Shown one piece after another: positions 2,252-31,716 of a stretch of 64,000 nt of DNA. A model generated the notes under the pieces. That model saw only the letters and a list, made by a program, of their open reading frames with translations. It was not told the DNA's origin and made no database searches. This stretch comes from a virus. The translations under genes and the position numbers were made by a program. The first letter of the stretch is position 1, and the number at the start of each line of letters is the position of its first letter. The stretch lies in the IMG/VR virus record IMGVR_UViG_3300045988_176686. One strand, 5' to 3'.

Positions 2252-2749
2252 ATGAAATATATTCAACTAATAGAACTGGCTCGCGCCACAGGCGTAGCTA
2301 ATGAGAAAAAAATGTGGGATGCCATTCAACAAATGTCGTGCGACCTTACAGCCATCGAAGCTGAACATCCTGAAATGTATTGGCGTATCATGCGACACCA
2401 ACATGCCATACTGTATGACCGTCATTATAGCGAGAAGTTTGCCAACCACGACGTGAACCGCCTGGAATATGGCGAATTAGACGAAGAAGGTATGCCTACT
2501 AAATGTGGACCGCATTGGACTCGCTCACAAGTGATTGAAGCCACGGAAGGCATGAAATTCCCCCCAAAGGTAAACGATTGGGATAAATACGTAGCCTTCA
2601 ACTCTATGTATGCCGACCTTTGCGCAGATATGAATGAAGAAGAAATCATCAAGGCTGCATACCTTTTCTACTTTTGTGATGCTGATTGGCAACACGATAA
2701 CGACTGCACCAAAATATGGGATTACACGACCATGCACGCTACCATGTAA
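2252..2749 (+). CDS. hypothetical protein
   Basis: 165-aa ORF. The overlapping ORFs on the other strand are shorter and have low-complexity composition. Confidence 0.6.
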   Translation: MKYIQLIELARATGVANEKKMWDAIQQMSCDLTAIEAEHPEMYWRIMRHQHAILYDRHYSEKFANHDVNRLEYGELDEEGMPTKCGPHWTRSQVIEATEGMKFPPKVNDWDKYVAFNSMYADLCADMNEEEIIKAAYLFYFCDADWQHDNDCTKIWDYTTMHATM

Positions 2750-2942
2750 AAAGCTTCGGTCTTGTTTATACGTTCCCATATATCTCACAACTGAAAAAAT
2801 CTACCCTAAAACAGGGCTATTAAAGTCCCCTCGCGCCAACAATTATGCCGCAAAGGGACTTTCATTGCGTCCTCATTTACACGTCTTATCCTTCTATTAG
2901 AAAATCTTTTTACAAATGTTATTATCATAAGCAAATGTTACG

Positions 2943-2950
2943 TACCTTTG
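2943..2950 (+). promoter_or_regulatory. Bacteroidota-type -7 promoter box (TACCTTTG) for the LysR gene
   Basis: Exact TAnnTTTG match 31 nt upstream of the ATG at 2982. Confidence 0.45.
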
Positions 2951-2981
2951 CTATTAGGAACACATTAAATACTCTACTGCT

Positions 2982-3887
2982 ATGGAATTACGACATCTAC
3001 GTTCCTTTGTTTACGTTGCTGAAACACTCTCGTTTTCTATTGCCGCTACAAAGTGCTGTGTCACCCAGTCTGCTATCAGCCAGCACATCAAAACTCTTGA
3101 AGATGAGTTAGGCTGCAAGTTGCTTGTTCGTACTTCTCACGACATCACGCTAACTGAATATGGAGAAGCCCTTTTGCCTCGAGCAAAAGATATTCTCAAA
3201 CAGACTGCCGACTGCAAAGAGCATATCTACGCACTCAACAACTGCATGACGGGTGAACTGCGCATTGGTGTCGGCTCATTCATTGCGCCATATATCCGTG
3301 TGGCTGCCATGATATTCATGGAGCGTTACCCGAATGTGCGACTGAATGCTGAACTCACCAAAGCCACCAGTTTAAATCATTTGTTGCGCAATCACGAAAT
3401 TGACATTGCTTTCACCATGAACACGGCATACACGCATGAGGGAATTGAGTCGCAACCTTGCATTCCCTTCCACATTTATGCGATTATGCGCAACACGCAT
3501 CCCTTAACTCGTCTACCTAAAGTTTCTTACGATGATATGCTACGCCATAGCGTGATTATGCCAGCCGTAGGTGAACGTGTTTTCAATACTTTTCAGCAAT
3601 ACATTCAACACGACCTAACTAAGCTGAACATCAAGTGCATTGTGAGTGATCCAGATGAAGACCTTGCTATCGTGGAAGAAACACAAAACATCACTTTCAT
3701 GCCTAAACTTTACCTGCGGAACCACCCTACCCTTGTGGCAAGACCTATCATAGGATTAGAGCAAGAGATAATGAGTAATACGCACTGGATGCGCGATGTG
3801 CCACTCAAACGCTCCGCACAGATATTTCTCGACATTATCCGTCAAGAGGCTATTCCTTACATCAACGAACTGGAAAAAACCTACTAA
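2982..3887 (+). CDS. LysR-family transcriptional regulator
   Basis: The N-terminus MELRHLRSFVYVAETLSFSIAATKCCVTQSAISQHIKTLEDELGCKLLVRTSH is the LysR winged-HTH signature. The 301-aa length fits an HTH plus a co-inducer-binding domain. The gene has its own promoter and terminator. Confidence 0.9.
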   Translation: MELRHLRSFVYVAETLSFSIAATKCCVTQSAISQHIKTLEDELGCKLLVRTSHDITLTEYGEALLPRAKDILKQTADCKEHIYALNNCMTGELRIGVGSFIAPYIRVAAMIFMERYPNVRLNAELTKATSLNHLLRNHEIDIAFTMNTAYTHEGIESQPCIPFHIYAIMRNTHPLTRLPKVSYDDMLRHSVIMPAVGERVFNTFQQYIQHDLTKLNIKCIVSDPDEDLAIVEETQNITFMPKLYLRNHPTLVARPIIGLEQEIMSNTHWMRDVPLKRSAQIFLDIIRQEAIPYINELEKTY

Positions 3888-12007: not shown

Positions 12008-12847
12008 ATGAGCCAAATTACCAAGGGCACACTTGCCCGAATTGACAAATGGTTGTCGTGTGGCACGAGCATTGAAATGGCTTTTCCAAAGTTGGAGCAG
12101 CGTTACCGCATGCAGGTGTGTGGCGAGTTCTACAAGCGTTGGCAACAGAACAACGACATTGACCCTCGCACCACCTGTCGCAACATTGCCCGACGCGATT
12201 ATGAGCTATTCTTCAATCAAGCGGCACAAGGCAACCAAGATGCGCAAGCTATGGTGCTTGCCTTGCACATTACGATCGACGATGAAGGCAACATACGTCC
12301 GCGCACCGTGACGGAGATTAACAACGACGTTACGGTGTGCAACCATCTCATTCGTTTTTTTATGACAGACGAAAGTCCGCGCCACAAGGCGATGTATCTG
12401 AGCAGTGCCGAATGGCTGATACGCACAGGCAAACAGCAAAACAACGATCGTGCAGTAGATAAGGGTATGCAAGCCTTAGCGAATGTGTATGGCAACTTCC
12501 AGGAAGAGAAGGACGCTACCGACGAGATGCCCGACATGAGCCGCATTTCTATCACGCAGGATGTGAGCATTGTGAAGCGCGACCGCGTGAACTACACTGA
12601 TGAGTACAAAGCGAAGATGGCACGCAAGTATGGACTTACGGCTAAGGATATGCAAGACATTGAAGAGGATGCTTTGCTTGCCACGAAGCCCGAACGCGAG
12701 AACGAGGAAGAGCCAGACTACTTTGCGTATATGGAGGAACAAACCGAACAAGAAGATGCGCAGCACCCTCACTCCGCTGCTGCCGAGGCAGAAATGCCCA
12801 TGCCTAACACCAATACCGGCCATGAAGCGAAACAGCAAGGGGAATAA
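12008..12847 (+). CDS. hypothetical protein (possibly a small terminase subunit, by position only)
   Basis: 279-aa ORF, the first gene of the operon that ends in terL. It has an acidic C-terminus. I recognise no diagnostic motif. Confidence 0.55.
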   Translation: MSQITKGTLARIDKWLSCGTSIEMAFPKLEQRYRMQVCGEFYKRWQQNNDIDPRTTCRNIARRDYELFFNQAAQGNQDAQAMVLALHITIDDEGNIRPRTVTEINNDVTVCNHLIRFFMTDESPRHKAMYLSSAEWLIRTGKQQNNDRAVDKGMQALANVYGNFQEEKDATDEMPDMSRISITQDVSIVKRDRVNYTDEYKAKMARKYGLTAKDMQDIEEDALLATKPERENEEEPDYFAYMEEQTEQEDAQHPHSAAAEAEMPMPNTNTGHEAKQQGE

Positions 12848-13061
12848 CCATTATCACAACAAGCGCCCGCCTTTTCGTCCCGACCCCGAACATTGGACGC
12901 GCAAGAGTTCGCACGGATGGAAGGCTAAGGTGAGTTACAACACCGAGGACGATGCCTACGAATGGTTGAACCAACAACCGCGCCTTCTAAACGAAGGTTA
13001 CAAGGCTTACTTATGCAAAGTGTGCAATAAGTGGCACATTGGGCATAAGCGTGAGGAATAA
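12822..13061 (+). CDS. small basic protein with a C-terminal CxxC-WH motif
   Basis: The internal ATG at 12822 of the 12600..13061 ORF gives a 79-aa protein, MKRNSKGNNHYHNKRPPF...YLCKVCNKWHIGHKREE. It overlaps the previous gene end by 26 nt. The longer N-terminal extension looks like out-of-frame noise. Confidence 0.45.
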   Translation: MKRNSKGNNHYHNKRPPFRPDPEHWTRKSSHGWKAKVSYNTEDDAYEWLNQQPRLLNEGYKAYLCKVCNKWHIGHKREE

Positions 13062-13119
13062 GTTTTGGGGAATACAATACTAACTACACACTAACCCACA
13101 CAAACAAAAAGAAACGAAT

Positions 13120-14156
13120 ATGAAATACGGATTACCGTACAAAGGGAGTAAGAACAAACTGGCTGAGCGCATTGTGCGCCTATTGCCCCGACGCACCAAC
13201 CTTGTAGACTTGTTTTGCGGGGGTTGCGCTATTAGCCATGCCGCCTTGCTTATGGGTAAGTTTGAGCACATTTACATTAACGACATCAACTGGATGTGCC
13301 CCACCCTATTTATGGATGCCTTGCAGGGCAAATATGCCAACGACACGCGGTGGATTAGCCGTGAGGATTTTTTCCGACTACGCGACACCGACCCTTACGT
13401 GGCTATGGTGTGGTCGTTTGGCAACAATATGCGCGACTACCTTTATTCCAAAGAAATTGAACCGCTGAAAAAAGCCATTCACTATGCGCTGTTCTTTTCA
13501 GATTATTCGCTGGCAAAAGCACTGGGGCACGACCTTTCGTTTGTTGACGCCATTAAGGATGTGCAACAACGTTATCGTTCCGTAAGACAGTATTTCAGTC
13601 AGTTGGGCACTTCCAACAACAATCTTTTGAGGGGGGGGGAATATCCGCGCGATTGGAAACGATGGAGCGACAGCAAACACGCTCCGTCTTTCAAAAAAAA
13701 AAAATCCAAAAACGACCTTGGGAGGCAGAACACAGAGATCGCACAAACAGCCTTACACATATTGCAATACCAAGAGCGGTCACACAACCTGCCCAGAAAT
13801 ACATGTGTGGAAAAAAGTTACCCATCACGCCATCTGTGCTTAGCTACGAGCAAGTGGTTATACCGCCAGATAGCGTAATCTATTGCGACATTCCTTATGA
13901 AAGCACAAACAAATACAACAAAGCAGAAAATTTCGACTACGAACGTTTTTACACATGGACAGAAAGTCAGACTCCGCCCGTGTTCATCTCCTCCTACCAA
14001 ATGCCCACCGACCGATTCGACTGCATTGCAGAATATTCGCACCGTTCTACGCTTAACGACAAAAAGAATAATGCCGTAACCGAGCGCATCTTTGTGCCAA
14101 AGCACCAAACTGAGCGTGGCAACATTTGCCAACAACTCACATTTCCATTGTTTTAA
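13120..14156 (+). pseudogene. Dam-like (D12-class) N6-adenine DNA methyltransferase, reading frame interrupted
   Basis: The N-terminal part in frame 1 reads MKYGLPYKGSKNKLAERIV...LVDLFCGGCAISHAAL, giving a YxGSK motif and an FxGG motif I. The C-terminal part in frame 3 reads SVIYCDIPYESTNKYN, a DPPY-type motif IV. The two frames overlap across a G9 run (13631-13639) and an A12 run (13693-13704). A 1-nt insertion in either run would fuse them. Confidence 0.75.
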
Positions 14157-14183
14157 CACGAACAAACAACCACACAAACAAAT

Positions 14184-14465
14184 ATGATTATCATTAAAAT
14201 CAAAACGTGGAAGGACTATAAAAAGGACTTCATAAATTGGGTGCAAGCACCGCGACGCAAAACTTGTAAGGAATTTGTGAATTACATGGGAAGCGTTTCG
14301 CAAAAAGTAGTAGACAAGCGTCTTGCTGAAGAACTCGACAAAATAGAAGGGTTGAACGCAGCGCAAAAAGACAACATCATTCGCACCGCACAACAAGCCA
14401 TTGTGGATTGCCAAAAAGGTACTTGCCAGTTGATTAACGAATGTGTACCCCAAAAACTTTTATAA
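14184..14465 (+). CDS. hypothetical protein
   Basis: 93-aa ORF in the operon, preceded by a C/A-rich leader. Confidence 0.55.
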   Translation: MIIIKIKTWKDYKKDFINWVQAPRRKTCKEFVNYMGSVSQKVVDKRLAEELDKIEGLNAAQKDNIIRTAQQAIVDCQKGTCQLINECVPQKLL

Positions 14466-14481
14466 CACGAACACCCACCAC

Positions 14482-14736
14482 ATGAAAAAGATAAACTATT
14501 CCTCGCAATCACTGCGCCACATCATTAGCAGTGCAATGGTAATCTTTATTCTGTTAATCATTGCAGCTTGCTTTTTAGTGACTGTTTCGGTAATGAGAGC
14601 CATTTCCTTTGCGCTATTCATAATCAGCGCAATCACTGGGCTCTACTTAGTAGTTTTTATAACAGTCGATACGTTCTTGGATAAATTAAAGCATGAGCAC
14701 GACAAGAAACAAAAACACCACACCACATGGAAATAA
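14482..14736 (+). CDS. small membrane protein
   Basis: The ATG at 14482 (MKKINYSSQ...) follows a TAACACGAACA leader like that of the 14184 gene. The protein has two hydrophobic helices. Confidence 0.5.
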   Translation: MKKINYSSQSLRHIISSAMVIFILLIIAACFLVTVSVMRAISFALFIISAITGLYLVVFITVDTFLDKLKHEHDKKQKHHTTWK

Positions 14737-14957
14737 CCGGCAAGTTTCTTCTTCGTTGCATGCGTCACACCTCTATATGGGCATTGGACACTTTCATCAT
14801 GGACGCTGCCTATCATCTTCAACACCTCCTTCCACCCATACCGTGCATATTGATAATGGCGGTGGGGATATATATCTTCGTATTCTACATGGTGCGCCTC
14901 GCAGGGTTTCTTGCATGTATTCTTTGCGGCGATGAATTGTTTAAGGACGAAAACTGA
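14727..14957 (+). CDS. small membrane protein
   Basis: 76-aa ORF with two hydrophobic helices. It overlaps the previous stop by 10 nt. Confidence 0.5.
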   Translation: MEITGKFLLRCMRHTSIWALDTFIMDAAYHLQHLLPPIPCILIMAVGIYIFVFYMVRLAGFLACILCGDELFKDEN

Positions 14958-14997
14958 TTAACTAAACACCCCATGCAACAACGACCTCACCAAATTT
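14956..14997 (+). repeat. direct repeat copy 1 (duplicated terL 5' junction)
   Basis: GATTAACTAAACACCCCATGCAACAACGACCTCACCAAATTT matches 16718-16759 at 41 of 42 positions. Here it opens only a 22-codon dead-end ORF (MQQRPHQILKNY...). Confidence 0.9.
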
Positions 14998-15022
14998 TGA
15001 AGAATTATAAAACAACAACACC

Positions 15023-15319
15023 ATGTACATATCAATTTTAGATTACAGCCGAGGAACGGTTTCCATTATATACGACACTGAAAACGTGACCGAGAACATG
15101 CAGAACGAGGACGTTTATACGCTACTCGACACATTAGGTTTTCATAAATCGAATATCTATTTTATGATTTCTAAGGAGAACCCTTACGAACCAGTGGGAG
15201 AATACATCACCTTGCAAAAACTTTGTGAGGATATAAATGAAGACAGAATAGAGGAATTGTCACATAACCTTAATCTCTCTACTGAAGACTTGACAAGAAA
15301 GGAGGTTCACCATGGCTAA
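15023..15319 (+). CDS. hypothetical protein
   Basis: 98-aa acidic ORF, the first gene inside the repeat-flanked cassette. It overlaps the next gene by 8 nt. Confidence 0.55.
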   Translation: MYISILDYSRGTVSIIYDTENVTENMQNEDVYTLLDTLGFHKSNIYFMISKENPYEPVGEYITLQKLCEDINEDRIEELSHNLNLSTEDLTRKEVHHG

Positions 15320-15905
15320 GGACTGGGTTGGCGGCTCGGCTGCTGTGTTTAAGACATTAGGCGCAAGTAACCATACGGCTGCGGATAGGCAAAGTGAGGA
15401 TTACTATGCCACCGAACCAAAAGCTACAGAATGGCTGTGCAAACTGGAGCAGTTTGAGGGCAGGATATTGGAACCTTCGTGTGGTGAGGGTCACATGAGT
15501 AGGGTGTTAGAGGCAGCAGGGTATGACGTGGTGAGCCGCGACCTTGTGGATAGGGGTTACGGCAAAGTGGCAGACTTTCTTGCAATAGACAATTTGAAGT
15601 GGGATGGAAACATCGTGACCAATCCTCCATACAAATTCGCGCAGCAGTTTGTTGAAAAGGCTCTGAGCATCATTCCCGAAGGAAAGAAAGTGGCGATGTT
15701 TTTGAAACTGACTTTTCTCGAAGGCAAGGCACGACGCACTCTCTTCCGTTCTACCCCACCCATTCGTGTATGGGTAAGTTCTTCACGACTGAAATGTGCT
15801 ATGAATGGCGACTTCGATGCTTTCGGCAGCAGCGCAGCGGCTTACGCTTGGTTTGTGTGGGAGAAAGGCTATAAAGGTGAGACAACTGTAAAATGGTTTA
15901 ACTGA
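15312..15905 (+). CDS. N6-adenine DNA methyltransferase (NPPY type)
   Basis: ILEPSCGEGHM is a SAM-binding motif I-like segment. It is followed by IVTNPPYKF, the catalytic NPPY motif IV. Confidence 0.75.
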   Translation: MAKDWVGGSAAVFKTLGASNHTAADRQSEDYYATEPKATEWLCKLEQFEGRILEPSCGEGHMSRVLEAAGYDVVSRDLVDRGYGKVADFLAIDNLKWDGNIVTNPPYKFAQQFVEKALSIIPEGKKVAMFLKLTFLEGKARRTLFRSTPPIRVWVSSSRLKCAMNGDFDAFGSSAAAYAWFVWEKGYKGETTVKWFN

Positions 15906-15926
15906 TAGATTTACAAAAAACAAAGC

Positions 15927-16697
15927 ATGATAGAACTGAATAAGATATATAATGAAGACTGCCTTGAAGGAATGAAAAGAATACCGGACGGGAGTGTGGA
16001 TTGCATTGTGTGCGATTTGCCGTATGAAGTTCTGAACAAAGGCAATAAAAAAGCACGATGGGATAACATGATCCCGATGGAGCCTCTATTCAAGGAATAC
16101 TGGCGAATAGCGAAAATTAACGCTCCTATTATTCTCTTCTGCCAAGGAATGTTTACGGCACAGCTAATGATGGCATCACCTGACACATGGCGATATAATC
16201 TAATTTGGCAAAAAGACAGACCAACGGGCTTTCTCAATGCGAAGCGAATGCCGATGCGGAGCCATGAGGATATTGCTGTGTTCTATCGTGCGCTACCTAC
16301 ATACAACCCGCAAATGAGACAAGGTTCCCCCTCTCACTCGCGAGGACATAAATGCGGAAAAGCAAATGGTAATGTCTGTTATGGCAACTATAATATTGAG
16401 ACCTACTCTAAAGAAGTAACAACAGAGAAATATCCTATATCTGTATTGTTCTTCGACAAAGAAAAGAATCTTGATATGCACCCCACTCAAAAGCCCGTAG
16501 ATCTTATTCAGTACCTCATTCGCACCTACTCCAACGAGGGCGACACCATATTAGACAACTGTATGGGCAGTGGCACCACTGCCATTGCTTGTATAAAAGA
16601 GAAGCGCAACTTCATCGGTTTTGAACTCAACAAGGAGTATTACGACAAGGCTTGCAAGCGTATCAAACAGGAGCGGGCGCAACTTACCCTCTTCTGA
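15927..16697 (+). CDS. beta-class amino-DNA methyltransferase (N4-cytosine or N6-adenine; N6_N4_Mtase-like)
   Basis: VDCIVCDLPYEV, a (D/S)PPY-type motif IV, lies near the N-terminus. TILDNCMGSGTTAIAC (motif I) and FIGFELNKEYY lie near the C-terminus. This motif order is the beta class. Confidence 0.85.
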   Translation: MIELNKIYNEDCLEGMKRIPDGSVDCIVCDLPYEVLNKGNKKARWDNMIPMEPLFKEYWRIAKINAPIILFCQGMFTAQLMMASPDTWRYNLIWQKDRPTGFLNAKRMPMRSHEDIAVFYRALPTYNPQMRQGSPSHSRGHKCGKANGNVCYGNYNIETYSKEVTTEKYPISVLFFDKEKNLDMHPTQKPVDLIQYLIRTYSNEGDTILDNCMGSGTTAIACIKEKRNFIGFELNKEYYDKACKRIKQERAQLTLF

Positions 16698-16717
16698 TAA
16701 CACACAAAAAAACAAAC

Positions 16718-16759
16718 GATTAACTAAACACCCCATGCAACAACAACCTCACCAAATTT
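16718..16759 (+). repeat. direct repeat copy 2 (authentic terL leader and first 8 codons)
   Basis: 41 of 42 positions identical to 14956-14997. It contains the terL ATG at 16735. Confidence 0.9.
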
Positions 16760-18732
16760 ACCTCACGCGCTTTCAGCAACAATCGCTCTACATGGCTGCT
16801 AAGGATGAGCGAGTAATTGCTGCCCGCCGTGTGGGAAAGACCGACGGACTTGTGGCACCTTACGTGTGGATGGCAAGTCAGTCGATGCCGGGTATGCTTG
16901 GTGCTTGGGTGGCAGTGAGCCGACAGCAAGGCTTTGGCAAGACCATACCAAGCACGATGGCAGCTATGGAGCGCATGTTTGGCTTTGTGCAAGGCGTTCA
17001 CTTTGGGTGGGGACGTCCGCCTAAGCATGCCAAACCCAGCATTTTTAAGCCTAAGAATTACGACAACTATATTTGGTTTGCCAACGGAGCGGGGTGGGTG
17101 CTCATTTCGCTCTCGCAAACTGCCTCGGCAAACTCTTACACCTTCTCGGCTATGGTGGGCGACGAGGCACGTTTTTTTCCCTATAAAAAGGTGACGGACG
17201 AACTGATGCCTGCGCTTTCGGGTCAAACACACCCCTTGGGCGACATCGCGTTTTCCGACCACAATCCGCTCTACAAAAGCACGCGCTTCCTCTCTGATGC
17301 CTCGCTCACCACCAAAGGCTCATGGTTGGAACGCGAGGAGGAGAAGCTTGACCTCGAAATTGAAACAGGACAGTTCAAGGGCAAAACTTACCGATGGGTG
17401 CAGGAGCAACTGGAGGATTATGCCGACAAGATTATCCGCTACAACGACCTGCTGTATAATGCCCGCAAGTCGGGACACATTGTCCATGTGGTTCCCGATG
17501 AGATGCGCCAAGTGATGCGTGCCGTTGCACTGAAGATGATGCGCCATGAAGGGCAATTCCGCATCATGCCTAACCACGGACTGCATGTGACGCGAGCGAT
17601 GGTGACCATGGCGGTGAACTACCACCTTATTGACCCAAACGATGCCGAACTGATTTACGACTACGAATACCTCATTACGCCAGAGGAAGATTTTGAAATG
17701 CAGAAGTTCTTGCGTTCCAAAAAATTCTCTGAAGGTTATTTGCGCGAATTGCGTCGTGTGGCTTTTGTGGTGCGCAGAGCAAGCACCCTCTCGAATGTGG
17801 ATCTTCTTTCTGAGGATTACATCCGACAGATGAAGCGCGATCTTCCAGCCTACACGTTCATGGTCAGTATTATGAACGTAAAGATGCAAAAGTCGAACGA
17901 TGGTTTTTATAGCAACCTTGATATTGATCATGTGCATGGCTACATTCCAGAGGACGTTGATCCCCTAAGTCAAGCAAATTTCAGTACCCAAAAAGCAACG
18001 GGCATTGTGGACGGCAAACGCATTACAAGCGAAAGTTATCAGCCCGACTTTAAGGAACTGAGCGAGCGCAACGATTGCCGCATGGACTCTGACTGCCACA
18101 TGAGCGAACCTTTGTACCTTGCACTCGACTATAATGCCAACATCAATACGCTTGTGGTGGGACAGAAATATGAGCGCGATGGGGTAATGGCTCTCAATGT
18201 CATTAAGTCGTTCTATGTGAAGAACGAGCGCAAACTGCGCGAACTCATTCAAGACTTTTCGCGCTACTATGCTCCCAAACGTGCCATTTGTAGCGATGTG
18301 GTGTATTTTTACGACGCCACTGCCAAACAGGGTGCATCGTATGCCACCACCGACGAACGATTTTATATGGCGGTGATTAAGGAGTTGCAAGCCGCGGGGT
18401 GGACGGTGCGCGGCATCGACATGGGTGTGCCCGAACGTCACGACGTGAAGCACCGCCTTATTAACGAGGCTTTGGCGGGAGTTACATTCCCAGCCATACG
18501 CATTAACCAACCCAACAACCCCGACCTCATTATTGCCATGCAGCTGTGTGAGGTCAGCCTGTCGTATCGCGGTTTTCAAAAAGACAAGAGCCAAGAAAAG
18601 AAACCTGAGACTGAGGATAACCTACCCCTTCAGCAACGAACCGACTTTACCGATGCCTTCGATACGCTATGGTTAGGCGTGAAATACTTTATCGGTCGCT
18701 TCGGTTGGGCGTGGATGCCTGGGGGATATTAA
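16735..18732 (+). CDS. terL: terminase large subunit
   Basis: 665 aa from the ATG at 16735; the longer ORF from 16621 overlaps the methyltransferase gene. VIAARRVGKTDG is Walker A-like and AMVGDEARFF is Walker B-like. The C-terminal half has nuclease-type acidic motifs (LALDYNANINT, VYFYDATAKQG, FTDAFDTLW). Confidence 0.75.
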   Translation: MQQQPHQIYLTRFQQQSLYMAAKDERVIAARRVGKTDGLVAPYVWMASQSMPGMLGAWVAVSRQQGFGKTIPSTMAAMERMFGFVQGVHFGWGRPPKHAKPSIFKPKNYDNYIWFANGAGWVLISLSQTASANSYTFSAMVGDEARFFPYKKVTDELMPALSGQTHPLGDIAFSDHNPLYKSTRFLSDASLTTKGSWLEREEEKLDLEIETGQFKGKTYRWVQEQLEDYADKIIRYNDLLYNARKSGHIVHVVPDEMRQVMRAVALKMMRHEGQFRIMPNHGLHVTRAMVTMAVNYHLIDPNDAELIYDYEYLITPEEDFEMQKFLRSKKFSEGYLRELRRVAFVVRRASTLSNVDLLSEDYIRQMKRDLPAYTFMVSIMNVKMQKSNDGFYSNLDIDHVHGYIPEDVDPLSQANFSTQKATGIVDGKRITSESYQPDFKELSERNDCRMDSDCHMSEPLYLALDYNANINTLVVGQKYERDGVMALNVIKSFYVKNERKLRELIQDFSRYYAPKRAICSDVVYFYDATAKQGASYATTDERFYMAVIKELQAAGWTVRGIDMGVPERHDVKHRLINEALAGVTFPAIRINQPNNPDLIIAMQLCEVSLSYRGFQKDKSQEKKPETEDNLPLQQRTDFTDAFDTLWLGVKYFIGRFGWAWMPGGY

Positions 18733-18765
18733 ACATGAATGAATAACTAAACATAAATGCAGAAA

Positions 18766-18798
18766 AAGGGGAGCGCGTCATCACGACGAACTCCCCTT
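18766..18798. terminator. hairpin between convergent terL and GNAT genes
   Basis: AAGGGGAG (18766-18773) pairs with CTCCCCTT (18791-18798) as an 8-bp stem with a 17-nt loop, in a convergent intergenic region. Confidence 0.5.
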
Positions 18799-18839
18799 CA
18801 TTGCATATTTAATACCCTGATTAAATAAAGAGCTATACT

Positions 18840-19418
18840 TTACAATTCTTTTACCAGCAACGAACTGTGACGTCCAAATTCCTTTTCGTTATATCCAAGT
18901 CGCTCATACCATCGTAGCACCCATTCATCGGACTCGCGTCTGTCCCATTCCAAGCAAACGGTTTTGCAACCCATCTTCTTAGCTTCGCGTTCTGCCGTTT
19001 CAAGCAGTTTGCGGGCTACGCCTTGTTTACGATAAGGTTCATCTACCCATAGGGCATAAATCAGTGCGTCGGCTTTGCCTTCTATGCGGTTATCGTCAGC
19101 ATTCTTGTCGGGAATGCTTACTTGCACAGAGCTACGATGTATTCCGTCCACTATGAGTATTCGGTGTTCTTGATACCATTGTTGATGTAGCACCCTTTTG
19201 GTTTTCAGTTCAATCTTTGCAATAACATGTGCGGTATAATCTTCCCCCATTTCCCTCTCAACCATCGACATGATAGGCGAATGCTCTATGTGAGCAAGGG
19301 GAATGGGTTTCACTTCGGGTAGGTGACTATATTTGCTTTGATCGAAGATGCTATCTGAAATCACCGATATGGCAGCCGCTGCAAGCACGATGCAAATAAT
19401 CAGTACGATTGTAATCAT
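18840..19418 (-). CDS. GNAT-family N-acetyltransferase with an N-terminal membrane anchor
   Basis: LWVDEPYRKQGVARKLLETAEREAKKMG matches GNAT motif A (R/Q-x-x-G-x-A/G). The C-terminus WYERLGYNE is typical. The N-terminus MITIVLIICIVLAAAAISVI is hydrophobic. Confidence 0.8.
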   Translation of the reverse strand: MITIVLIICIVLAAAAISVISDSIFDQSKYSHLPEVKPIPLAHIEHSPIMSMVEREMGEDYTAHVIAKIELKTKRVLHQQWYQEHRILIVDGIHRSSVQVSIPDKNADDNRIEGKADALIYALWVDEPYRKQGVARKLLETAEREAKKMGCKTVCLEWDRRESDEWVLRWYERLGYNEKEFGRHSSLLVKEL

Positions 19419-30402: not shown

Positions 30403-31716
30403 TTAGTCGTGATTAGACTTGCGTTCCATGTTCTCTTTGAACAAATCTGCAAAGCCGTACCAAAAATAATTCATCCACTTGGGCGACTGCTTGAACTGCT
30501 CGTACATTATCTTTACTGATAGCATCTTCAAATGCTTCTCGCAATCTGTTATACTCTTGTGCCATCCGTCCCATTTCTTCATTTCTATCTGAAGCACTGT
30601 CTTTAGGAACATTGCAGCCTCGTGAGTAGGTGGAAGGTCGAACTGAAGGAAAAGTGCGGTGTCGGTATCATTGGCTTGCAAAAACTTTCGCACGGCATCA
30701 TCTTTCAGAAAATAGCGTTCTGACACTTCCTCGTCTAACACATCCTCCAATCGCATCTGCAAGGGAAAGGCTTCGGGAAACTGATAGTCGAAAGCTACAT
30801 CTTTGCGCATGGATAGGCAGAACACGCGGTCGCGGTTTTGCGGCACACCATAGTCCTTGGCATTGAGACGTGCCCAGCGGTTAACGTAGCCCAGACTTTC
30901 GAGTTTGGCGAGCCACAGCTTAAAATCGGGCATGAACTTTTCGCTTACCAAAGCTGCCACATTCTCTTGAAGCAGATATTTGGGTTTTAACACCGCCACG
31001 GCATCGGCTACGTGCCAAAGCAAGGCGGAACGTGTGTCACTACCCTCTTTCAGTCCCATTTGCTTTCCGGCTTGGCTGATGTCTTGGCATGGGGAAGAGT
31101 AAGTAAACAAGTCTACTTCGCGACCTTGCAGCGACTGCTTTACCTTGTGCCAATCTATTTTCGTAATGTCGCCTAACGCACGGACGGCATATTGCGGAAA
31201 AACGATGTTGTGCATTTGACAAGCATATTTGTCGATGTCGCTCCAACCCATGCACGTCCACCGAAAGTTGGGATGATCCTCGCGTAAAGCATCGGCTGCC
31301 ATGAGTTGGGAATCGTACCCACTAAAGGTGGTAATGATTACTTTTTCGCCTTCGTTTGTATCGACAGGCATAGAAGGCAAAGCGTCTTCAGGAAAGAAAG
31401 CATCGAACATGGATAGCTGCGCTTGTGGTTTGGGCGGTTTGGGGTACCACAGTTGGGAGTAGACGTGTTTTAAAACGTCAACACAAATACTATTTCCAGC
31501 TTGCTTGTATTGCTGACTCACCGACACCGCCATGTCGGTGGGTTTGCCTTTGCCCTCAGTGCCAGGCATGCGCTCTGCTGCTTGGGCATTGGTGATTTGC
31601 ATCACGTTAATCACGTCCTGACGCACACCCATCAAACGGAAGCATTCGGGGGGGGTAAGTTTTCGGATGGCATAACTCTTAATGGTGTGGTCGGTGAAGT
31701 TGAGTTTCGTTATCAT
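30403..31716 (-). CDS. C5-cytosine DNA methyltransferase, circularly permuted motif order
   Basis: Motif IX (RKLTPPECFRLMG) and motif X (QAGNSICVDVL) lie in the first 90 aa. They are followed by motif I (TTFSGYDSQ), motif IV (SSPCQDIS), motif VI (LLQENV) and motif VIII (QNRDRVF). Confidence 0.85.
   Translation of the reverse strand: MITKLNFTDHTIKSYAIRKLTPPECFRLMGVRQDVINVMQITNAQAAERMPGTEGKGKPTDMAVSVSQQYKQAGNSICVDVLKHVYSQLWYPKPPKPQAQLSMFDAFFPEDALPSMPVDTNEGEKVIITTFSGYDSQLMAADALREDHPNFRWTCMGWSDIDKYACQMHNIVFPQYAVRALGDITKIDWHKVKQSLQGREVDLFTYSSPCQDISQAGKQMGLKEGSDTRSALLWHVADAVAVLKPKYLLQENVAALVSEKFMPDFKLWLAKLESLGYVNRWARLNAKDYGVPQNRDRVFCLSMRKDVAFDYQFPEAFPLQMRLEDVLDEEVSERYFLKDDAVRKFLQANDTDTALFLQFDLPPTHEAAMFLKTVLQIEMKKWDGWHKSITDCEKHLKMLSVKIMYEQFKQSPKWMNYFWYGFADLFKENMERKSNHD

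Follow-up and report, generated by a model that had tools for sequence, protein, structure and literature searches.

Introduction

Accessory genes bounded by short duplications of a neighboring gene have been described in mycobacteriophages, where gene 68 of Island3, absent in Brujita, is bounded by ~50 bp duplicated from the end of a neighboring gene (Pope et al. 2011, PMC3029335). The authors explained this arrangement by recombination between the ~50-bp sequences, through deletion or intermolecular exchange (PMC3029335). Here, we describe a related arrangement in a 64,000-nucleotide stretch of viral DNA (IMG/VR record IMGVR_UViG_3300045988_176686; hereafter, the window), in which a methyltransferase (MTase) cassette lies between two copies of a 42-bp direct repeat, the second of which is the start of terL, the putative large terminase gene. 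As in the Island3/Brujita pair, one phage has extra genes that a close relative lacks, and they stand between duplicated neighbor-gene sequence. Unlike in Island3, where the duplicate is the 3' end of the upstream gene, here it comprises the leader and 5' end of the downstream, essential terL; moreover, the cargo is a three-gene MTase module, and the empty and filled states have each been recovered many times from metagenomes. This kind of repeat-bounded cassette is therefore already published for mycobacteriophages, and the present case is a further, well-documented example.

We consider, with a probability of about 0.75, that the 42-bp repeat is a recombination scar left by one illegitimate crossover and not a mobility site. 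The repeat, the stub, the empty site, the cargo variants, the variability of the surrounding island, and the family assignment of the MTases were observed directly. The single-crossover origin, the direction of change between empty and filled sites, and the anti-restriction role of the cargo are what we infer from the comparison of sequences presented below.

Two other described phenomena are close to this locus. Morons, in the sense of Juhala and Hendrix, are defined as extra DNA between genes that are adjacent in a related phage, and illegitimate recombination near gene borders has been treated in the same work (PMC3029335). The cassette resembles a moron in that terL and p76, the gene in front of the left copy, are adjacent in three related contigs (L055, L090, and L091), and its accessory cargo probably aids fitness in certain hosts. 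Classical morons have their own promoter and terminator and often a distinct composition, whereas none of these was detected in the cassette. Between positions 14956 and 16759, we found no sigma-70-type or Bacteroidota-type (-33/-7) promoter and no terminator above chance, the host promoter type being uncertain. The GC content (0.375-0.505 in the cassette, 0.40-0.54 in the flanks) had no sharp break and no foreign-DNA signature. All genes from p279, at the left edge of the surrounding island, to terL are co-directional, and the cassette appears to be read as part of this gene string. Furthermore, as in the boundary or linker exchange of lambdoid phages (PMC3029335), short conserved leaders at gene borders coincide with the exchange points, in this case the 42-mer and the 17-nt leaders of p98 and mt256, two of the cargo genes. 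Unlike the lambdoid linkers, the 42-mer is a one-off duplication at one locus, with no family at many borders.

A duplicated terL start

The two copies of the 42-mer, GATTAACTAAACACCCCATGCAACAAC(G/A)ACCTCACCAAATTT, lie on the + strand at the coordinates given in Table 1. They constitute the top and longest direct repeat of the region, with a spacing of 1762 nt. In window-type genomes, the copies differ only at repeat position 28, with G on the left and A on the right, and the longest perfect identity between them is 27 nt. The p76 stop codon contributes its last two bases as bases 1 and 2 of the repeat; when one indel is allowed, similarity reaches ~4 nt further left (GAAAACTGATTAAC versus AACAAAC-GATTAAC). 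The right copy comprises 17 nt upstream of the ATG at 16735 and 25 nt of coding sequence (MQQQPHQI plus 1 nt), and the left copy, hereafter the stub, repeats this terL initiation region in a place where no terL follows.

The terL start was assessed among relatives. The N-terminus MQQQPHQIYLT(R/K)FQQ is kept in the closest relatives (terL 95-99% identical), and most of the remaining 45 relatives begin terL with MQQAHNIYLTKFQQ, while the DNA 5' of the ATG diverges outside the closest relatives. Since the ATG is conserved where the DNA in front of it differs, 16735 is the true terL start.

The descriptive claims of an earlier interpretation made from the letters of the window (the sequence-only reading) held up well. 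It had stated that the 42-mer occurs twice only, with 41 of 42 positions identical, and a search allowing up to three mismatches retrieved no third copy in the 64-kb window, with matches of any kind in 0 of 100 shuffles. It had taken the second copy as the real terL leader plus eight codons, and the ATG of that copy is the conserved terL start in the 45 relatives. Likewise, the first copy opens only a 22-codon dead-end open reading frame (ORF), and the 98-amino-acid (aa) ORF and two MTase genes proposed between the copies were recovered, the MTases by Pfam and PHROG profile matches. The same reading had warned that the 42-mer might turn out to be a generic leader present before many genes. The 18-nt leader part, TTAACTAAACACCCCATG, has no site in the window beyond the same two places, again with up to three mismatches allowed; since even this part is confined to the two sites of the 42-mer, the generic-leader idea was ruled out.

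Filled and empty sites in relatives

Cassette-free relatives, in which the gene at 14727..14957 (p76) directly precedes terL, had been predicted and were found: L055, retrieved by a p76-based scan of metagenome contigs, L090, and L091, together with four similar places, have one copy of the 42-mer. In L055 (ERZ1023670, 97 kb), the gene order is p279-p93-p87-p76-terL, and the single 42-mer reads ...GACGAAAACTGATTAACTAAACACCCCATGCAACAACAACCTCACCAAATTTACCTCACG. The gap between p76 and terL is 15 nt in L055, L090 (NCBI, 99,451 nt), and L091 (ENA). The p76 allele of these genomes (P0044) was read on six contigs, L090 and L091 among them, and all six are empty. Since L055, L090, and L091 show 0-1 mismatches over 2.5 kb, they are repeated samplings of one clonal strain, which occurs in at least six assemblies (ERZ1023670 and ERZ28509034 among its samples). 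Its only copy of the repeat has A at position 28, which is compatible with a history of gain or of loss alike.

The filled site was recovered far more widely. All 24 of the 24 contigs read with the exact p76 of the window continue as stub-p98-mt197-MTase-terL. A second p76 allele (P0047), one amino acid from that of the empty strain, was read on 16 contigs, and the 12 reported places (12/12) are filled. Further filled genomes are L006, L007, L008, L040, L044, L056, L060, L075, and L077. In all, ~50 contigs have the same two copies with at least four different cargoes between them; samples with the filled strain include SRR2225837/ERZ951061 and ERZ1027181. The filled site is thus the common state, older than the window genome and lineage-wide. 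The stub likewise follows p76 in all filled relatives read through the left joint, and that joint, ...CAAATTT|TGAAGAATTA..., is common to all of them. The shared joint, together with the G/A difference between the copies in window-type genomes, indicates that the duplication arose once.

The window and all its relatives are metagenome assemblies, and an assembly or chimera artefact could in principle create such a repeat. The same structure, with the same G/A difference, is nevertheless present in ~50 contigs across IMG/VR, ENA, Logan, and NCBI projects, which makes the probability of an artefact practically negligible.

The cargo between the copies differs among genomes. The combination of p98 and mt197 with the 256-aa mt256 allele is found in the window, L075, L078, and 19 similar places; p98 and mt197 are combined with a 222-aa allele (41% identity) in L007, L008, L040, L056, L060, L079, L080, and L092-L099 and with a third allele in L006, and mt256 stands alone in L044. 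The last genome corresponds to the window minus 15019-15907, and the ends of the missing segment are two similar 17-nt leaders, GAATTATAAAACAACAA and GATTTACAAAAAACAAA.

The exchange within mt256 can also be located. DNA homology to relatives ends at 16010, just before the DLPY motif, and returns at 16476-16533, before the S-adenosylmethionine (AdoMet)-binding end. In at least three mt256 alleles, the first 28 codons and the last ~55-75 codons are shared at the DNA level, and the centers (16011-16530) are unrelated. These breakpoints show that the center of the enzyme is the exchanged part. The center of beta-class enzymes holds the target-recognition region. The exchange looks like a specificity-domain swap by homologous recombination, as judged from the pattern of shared and unrelated segments.

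Because filled and empty states both exist in nature, the repeats might act as a programmed and frequent ON/OFF switch, in which the cassette would be lost and regained from siblings, hedging between methylated and unmethylated genomes. Four short contigs, each from a different sample, end within the repeat, three (L057-59) at the same base and one (L089) at the same offset past the p76 stop, and such ends could mark a branch in the assembly graph; in addition, the neighboring Dam-like gene has homopolymer tracts of variable length, so methylation switching may matter in these phages. The contig ends are consistent with an assembly-graph branch and are no proof of mixed populations, as stopping at repeats is ordinary assembler behavior. 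Moreover, the empty state occurs in one clonal strain only, whereas the other three p76 alleles checked are all filled past the repeat (~40 contigs). Perfect identity of 27 nt is near the lower limit for efficient homologous recombination, which also speaks against frequent switching. Overall, we regard a programmed switch as very unlikely.

The sequence-only reading had interpreted the locus as the footprint of a cassette insertion or recombinational swap at the terL 5' junction. The presence of different cargo between the same copies agrees with this interpretation. The scar is, however, not specific to this genome (~50 contigs), and there is no sign of active mobility. The cassette could equally well be the right arm of an MTase-bearing parent genome, and not an inserted element.

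Evidence bearing on mobility

Direct repeats that bound varying cargo, together with an empty site, are what would be expected if the repeats were attachment sites of a site-specific cassette system (integron-like, or served by an integrase or transposase) acting at the terL start; integron-like cassettes have reportedly been found in phages (PMC9892861). Several observations are difficult to reconcile with such a system. No recombinase, transposase, or integrase was detected in or beside the cassette with Pfam, PHROG, and NCBIfam; across the island genes from p279 to terL, Pfam and PHROGs gave no recombinase match, the remaining genome having been scanned only in part. As single-stranded DNA, the 42-mer forms no hairpin or dyad on either strand (both 0 kcal/mol, no better than shuffles), unlike attC, and these folds ruled out the attC/hairpin idea. 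The cassette ends have no terminal inverted repeats, and 42 bp far exceeds the target duplications of transposons (2-14 bp). Additionally, the repeat is found at this locus only. The differences in cargo fall where homologous exchange took place, within mt256 and at leaders, and do not correspond to swaps of whole cassettes. Attachment sites of this kind are therefore highly improbable. No homing endonuclease gene is present in the window cassette; an HNH gene sits in the analogous segment of L012 and L017.

Proposed origin of the duplication

The recombination-scar reading would start from two gene orders, an E-type (p93-p87-p76-terL) and an M-type (p93-p98-mt197-[second MTase]-terL), which would have terL and the 17 nt before it in common. 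A single crossover, illegitimate and out of register, would have linked the E-type molecule, cut behind terL codon 8 (...CAAATTT), to the M-type molecule, cut shortly before the p98 leader (TGAAGAATTA...). The recombinant would carry p76 and a dead terL stub on its left side and the whole MTase module with an intact terL on its right side, and for this reason the terL start would be present twice. Under this reading, the right end of the repeat would be the new joint, and its left end, at the p76 stop codon, the point beyond which the E and M contexts were already different. The cargo would later have been reshuffled by ordinary homologous recombination among co-circulating relatives, which would account for the center of mt256 exchanged between conserved N- and C-terminal ends and for the absence of p98 and mt197 from L044 at similar 17-nt leaders. 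The 27 nt of perfect identity would suffice for a precise deletion, probably the source of the empty-site strain, and the expected deletion junction would be GAAAACTGATTAACTAAACACCCCATGCAACAAC[A/G]ACCTCACCAAATTTACCTCACG. An M-type donor should have p93, or another gene ending in ...GAAGAATTATAA, directly before a near-identical p98.

Sequences around the joint point in the same direction. The usual order in the sister clade is p254-PAPS_reductase-p93-p98-mt197-(72 aa)-terL, and since p93-p98-mt197 is common there, this order is old. The sequence AAAACAACAACACC after the stub is the p98 leader of sister-clade genomes (compare TTGACATTATAA... in L067 and ...aaaacaacaacact|ATG in L066 and L081), and TTGAAGAATTATAA in front of it, similar to the 3' end of the gene that precedes p98 in L067, may be a remnant of the donor's upstream gene. 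Moreover, L005 is without p87, p76, and p98, and its pre-terL sequence is identical to the context of the right copy in the window.

Other illegitimate joints were observed in the island. L012 and L017 have a second, independent scar of this type, in which the mt197 leader plus its first eight codons form a 30-nt exact repeat with copies 865 nt apart (312-341 and 1177-1206 in L012); between the copies lie what is left of the p98-3'/mt197-5' overlap, an HNH gene (PF01844) for an endonuclease, and p93. In L061 (6001-6642), another illegitimate deletion has left p76 with only its first ~31 codons, and the unrelated sequence that follows continues into the C-terminal portion of a PF01555 MTase. 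These joints indicate that the island is a hotspot of illegitimate as well as homologous exchange.

Several points weigh against the scar reading. An M-type parent with a closely related p98 and no stub was not found, the stub-less genomes having p98 at ≤84% identity, and the donor side of the joint, with any microhomology there, is conjecture. Additionally, no near-isogenic filled/empty pair was found, as the empty strain differs from every filled genome by ~1% on the left flank and by at least 3% in terL. On the left flank, the window, L078, and L080 match the empty strain at 98.8-99.0% identity, the other filled genomes being 90-96% identical to these, and the terL of the empty strain is closest to that of L060 (~96.5%). 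The empty strain is thus nested in filled diversity on both flanks, which favors a secondary precise deletion and also fits flank exchange. The latter could mimic the nesting pattern because terL is visibly mosaic among relatives (0-22 mismatches per 100 nt), which indicates frequent homologous exchange. Furthermore, the stub ATG and open frame are intact in every genome, and a neutral scar might decay. Only one site in 42 of the stub is variable among 11 distinct filled sequences; since this diversity equals that of nearby synonymous sites, the stub may simply be young, with neither decay nor special constraint.

The intact stub also raises the question of whether it has been kept as functional, the duplicated terL initiation region and its short ORF loading ribosomes and coupling translation into p98 or mt256, in addition to a scar origin. 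The ATG and open frame are retained in 11 of 11 distinct filled sequences, and in L044 and L057-59, the stub is still ~90-95% identical although the p76 protein is 55-63% identical. Moreover, the short stub ORF ends just past the ATG of the next gene in both the window and the L044 arrangement, and 197 of 200 shuffles are more structured than the leader region. Nevertheless, the nucleotide diversity (pi) of the stub, ~0.008, matches third-position diversity in p76 (0.007) and p98 (0.011), giving no excess constraint in a test with no power to separate selection from youth. In addition, p98 comes with a native A-rich leader, which is also found where the stub is absent, in sister-clade genomes; an open frame of 14 extra codons has a chance of about one-half, and crossovers inside the stub can explain its presence beside divergent p76 alleles. 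We therefore consider a functional stub unlikely. A broader variant, also quite unlikely, is that the duplicated terL start is a maintained "docking" sequence, serving both as a translation start and as a homology anchor through which p76-terL relatives gain or drop the module. If this were true, the island, with its slippery Dam-like tracts and swappable mt256 center, would be a multi-layer system that changes the methylation pattern rapidly as host restriction changes.

Cargo genes

The cargo is predicted to be a set of DNA-modifying enzymes. For mt256, the match to PF01555 (105 bits, cut-off 26.7) is accompanied by PDB matches to M.MboIIA (1g60) and 8urk, and the motif order, with DLPY at residues 30-33 and GSGTT near the C-terminus, places motif IV before motif I. 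The Pfam and PDB matches of mt197 are weak and sub-threshold. In line with orphan phage MTases acting against restriction (beta-class, M.MboIIA/CcrM-related), mt256 has the PF01555 domain and DLPY, mt197 has the phrog_799 match and NPPY, and no nuclease gene lies beside the cassette MTases. The predicted orphan MTases most likely modify the phage genome and protect it against host restriction enzymes.

Unlike orphan phage MTases, mt197 is unusually small and paired with a 98-aa partner without a known fold match; the AlphaFold2 model of p98 (predicted local distance difference test [pLDDT] 78) had no fold match in PDB (best E-value, 1.2). In all genomes examined, p98 is directly followed by a homologue of mt197, and the pair occurs at three different positions, namely behind p93, behind the terL stub, and behind terL. 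In L069 (5001-5909), the two are fused in frame into one 303-aa ORF. The constant pairing and this fusion indicate that p98 is a functional partner of mt197, and conservation of gene order suggests that it probably serves this very small enzyme as a subunit or domain.

Broken cargo genes occur in relatives (L092, 4086-4679; L082/L087; L101), with mt197 split into 42 + 136 aa or cut to 155 aa and p98 cut to 73 aa. Their presence in several relatives indicates that the MTase module is not always maintained.

The hypervariable island around the cassette

The cassette is part of a larger variable interval between p279 and terL (Table 1). Among 45 relatives, this interval holds 0-3 MTases in many arrangements, drawn from the Dam-like gene, mt197-like genes, and several PF01555 alleles, with or without p93, p87, p76, and p98; some genomes have an mt197-like gene, or p98 and mt197, downstream of terL instead. 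The proteins p279, p93, p87, p76, and p98 have no match in Pfam, PHROG, or NCBIfam, and p279 is possibly packaging related.

Table 1. Positions of the repeat copies, cargo, and neighboring features in the window
Feature	Coordinates	Strand	Remarks
p279, conserved gene at the left edge of the island	12008..12847	+	Found 5' of the island in almost all relatives, at 71-100% identity
Dam-like D12-class methyltransferase gene, frameshifted	13120..14156	+	PF02086 and phrog_56 matches split over two frames; outside the cassette
p93, conserved island gene	14184..14465	+	Directly precedes p98 in the sister clade
p87, small predicted membrane protein	14473..14736	+	Hydrophobic; only in p76-bearing genomes; left arm with p76
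p76, small hydrophobic protein gene	14727..14957	+	First 2 nt of the left repeat lie in its stop codon
Left repeat copy, dead stub	14956..14997	+	terL leader 14956-14972; terL codons 1-8 14973-14997
22-codon dead-end ORF MQQRPHQILKNYKTTTPCTYQF	14973..15041	+	Opened by the stub; passes the p98 ATG by 19 nt in another frame
Novel joint and native p98 leader	14998..15022	+	TTGAAGAATTATAA then AAAACAACAACACC
p98, accessory partner of mt197	15023..15319	+	Overlaps the mt197 start by 8 nt
mt197, small 197-aa DNA methyltransferase	15312..15905	+	phrog_799 E 8.3e-68; motif I EPSCGEG then NPPY
mt256, 256-aa beta-class N6-adenine/N4-cytosine DNA methyltransferase	15927..16697	+	PF01555 E 6.7e-30; phrog_67 E 3e-80
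Right repeat copy, working terL leader and first eight codons	16718..16759	+	Repeat search
terL (putative large terminase), right edge of the island	16735..18732	+	665 codons; distant homology, weak phrog_2 match, motif
GC-rich hairpin	18768..18796	.	Between convergent terL and acetyltransferase genes; conserved in relatives

The Dam-like gene contains two homopolymers, a poly-G at ~13631-13639 and a poly-A at 13694-13705, whose lengths vary among relatives. The (G,A) tract lengths are (9,12) in the window and L078 and (10,8) in L040 and L079; other relatives have (6,8), (9,10), (9,11), (11,11), and (18,10). The ORF is intact in at least two tract states, those of L040/L079 (344 aa) and L041. 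This variation looks like slipped-strand ON/OFF switching or homopolymer error; random error is less likely because the tract state of the window recurs in the independently assembled L078.

The 11 distinct p76 sequences vary at 15 sites, of which 12 fall in the first or second codon position, and alleles at 55-63% protein identity exist (P0004, L044); by these comparisons, p76 evidently evolves fast at the protein level. Sister-clade islands (L081-L088, ~2420-3680) also have, in the interval from the p279 homologue to p93, a gene of the PAPS-reductase family (PF01507; variable length, 346-421 aa), possibly another DNA-modification function.

A second MTase slot lies just downstream of terL, with an mt197-like gene in L044 (10029-10622) and L022 and with p98 and mt197 in L068/L069. 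At 18733-18767, the window keeps only AATAACTAAACA; the L041 equivalent, GGTTTAACTAAACA, resembles the 3' end of an mt197-like gene (...WFN and stop). The hairpin follows this short post-terL sequence in each genome and is likely the terminator that closes the p279-terL gene string. Additionally, sister-clade genomes (L014, L027, L031, L033, L034, and L045) have AAACTCAAAACTCAAA-type repeat blocks of 40-70 nt just 5' of terL, which recur just 3' of terL and 8-10 kb beyond, some of them inverted; relative to the terL start, they lie at about -150..-1, +2000, and +8000..+9800.

The phage family and its host

The window belongs to a tailed-phage genome, encoding a 1805-aa tape measure protein, a sliding clamp, and an exonuclease. 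Four MTase genes are present in the 64-kb window, including one for a 437-aa DNA MTase outside the island (30403-31716, - strand; phrog_116, E 8e-64). The terL protein is 31% identical over 77% of its length to annotated Microcystis phage terL proteins (E 6e-36), with a weak phrog_2 match (E 3e-4), a Walker-A-like RRVGKT motif, and no Pfam, NCBIfam, or PDB match.

In IMG/VR, 45 loci have terL at 79-99% identity, on contigs of up to ~101 kb. A megablast of 13000-19000 against GenBank phages returned nothing, and the terL protein search there gave only ~31%-identical matches; hence, there is no annotated close relative among GenBank phages. A scan of genome contigs retrieved only three distant loci. 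The phage belongs to an uncultivated family of ~100-kb human-gut phages. Labels derived from metagenome-assembled genomes, "Prevotella sp." for L072 and "Alloprevotella sp." for p76 allele P0044, are weak hints that the hosts of the family are Prevotellaceae.

Implications

The cassette reveals no new mechanism and belongs to the ordinary mosaicism of phage genomes. Its filled and empty sites, exact joint, and several cargo versions make it a clean natural illustration of the gain and loss of accessory genes by a phage genome. More broadly, the p279-terL interval is where these phages vary their DNA methyltransferases, and knowing this helps to predict host range and restriction evasion and to choose strains for methylome comparison.

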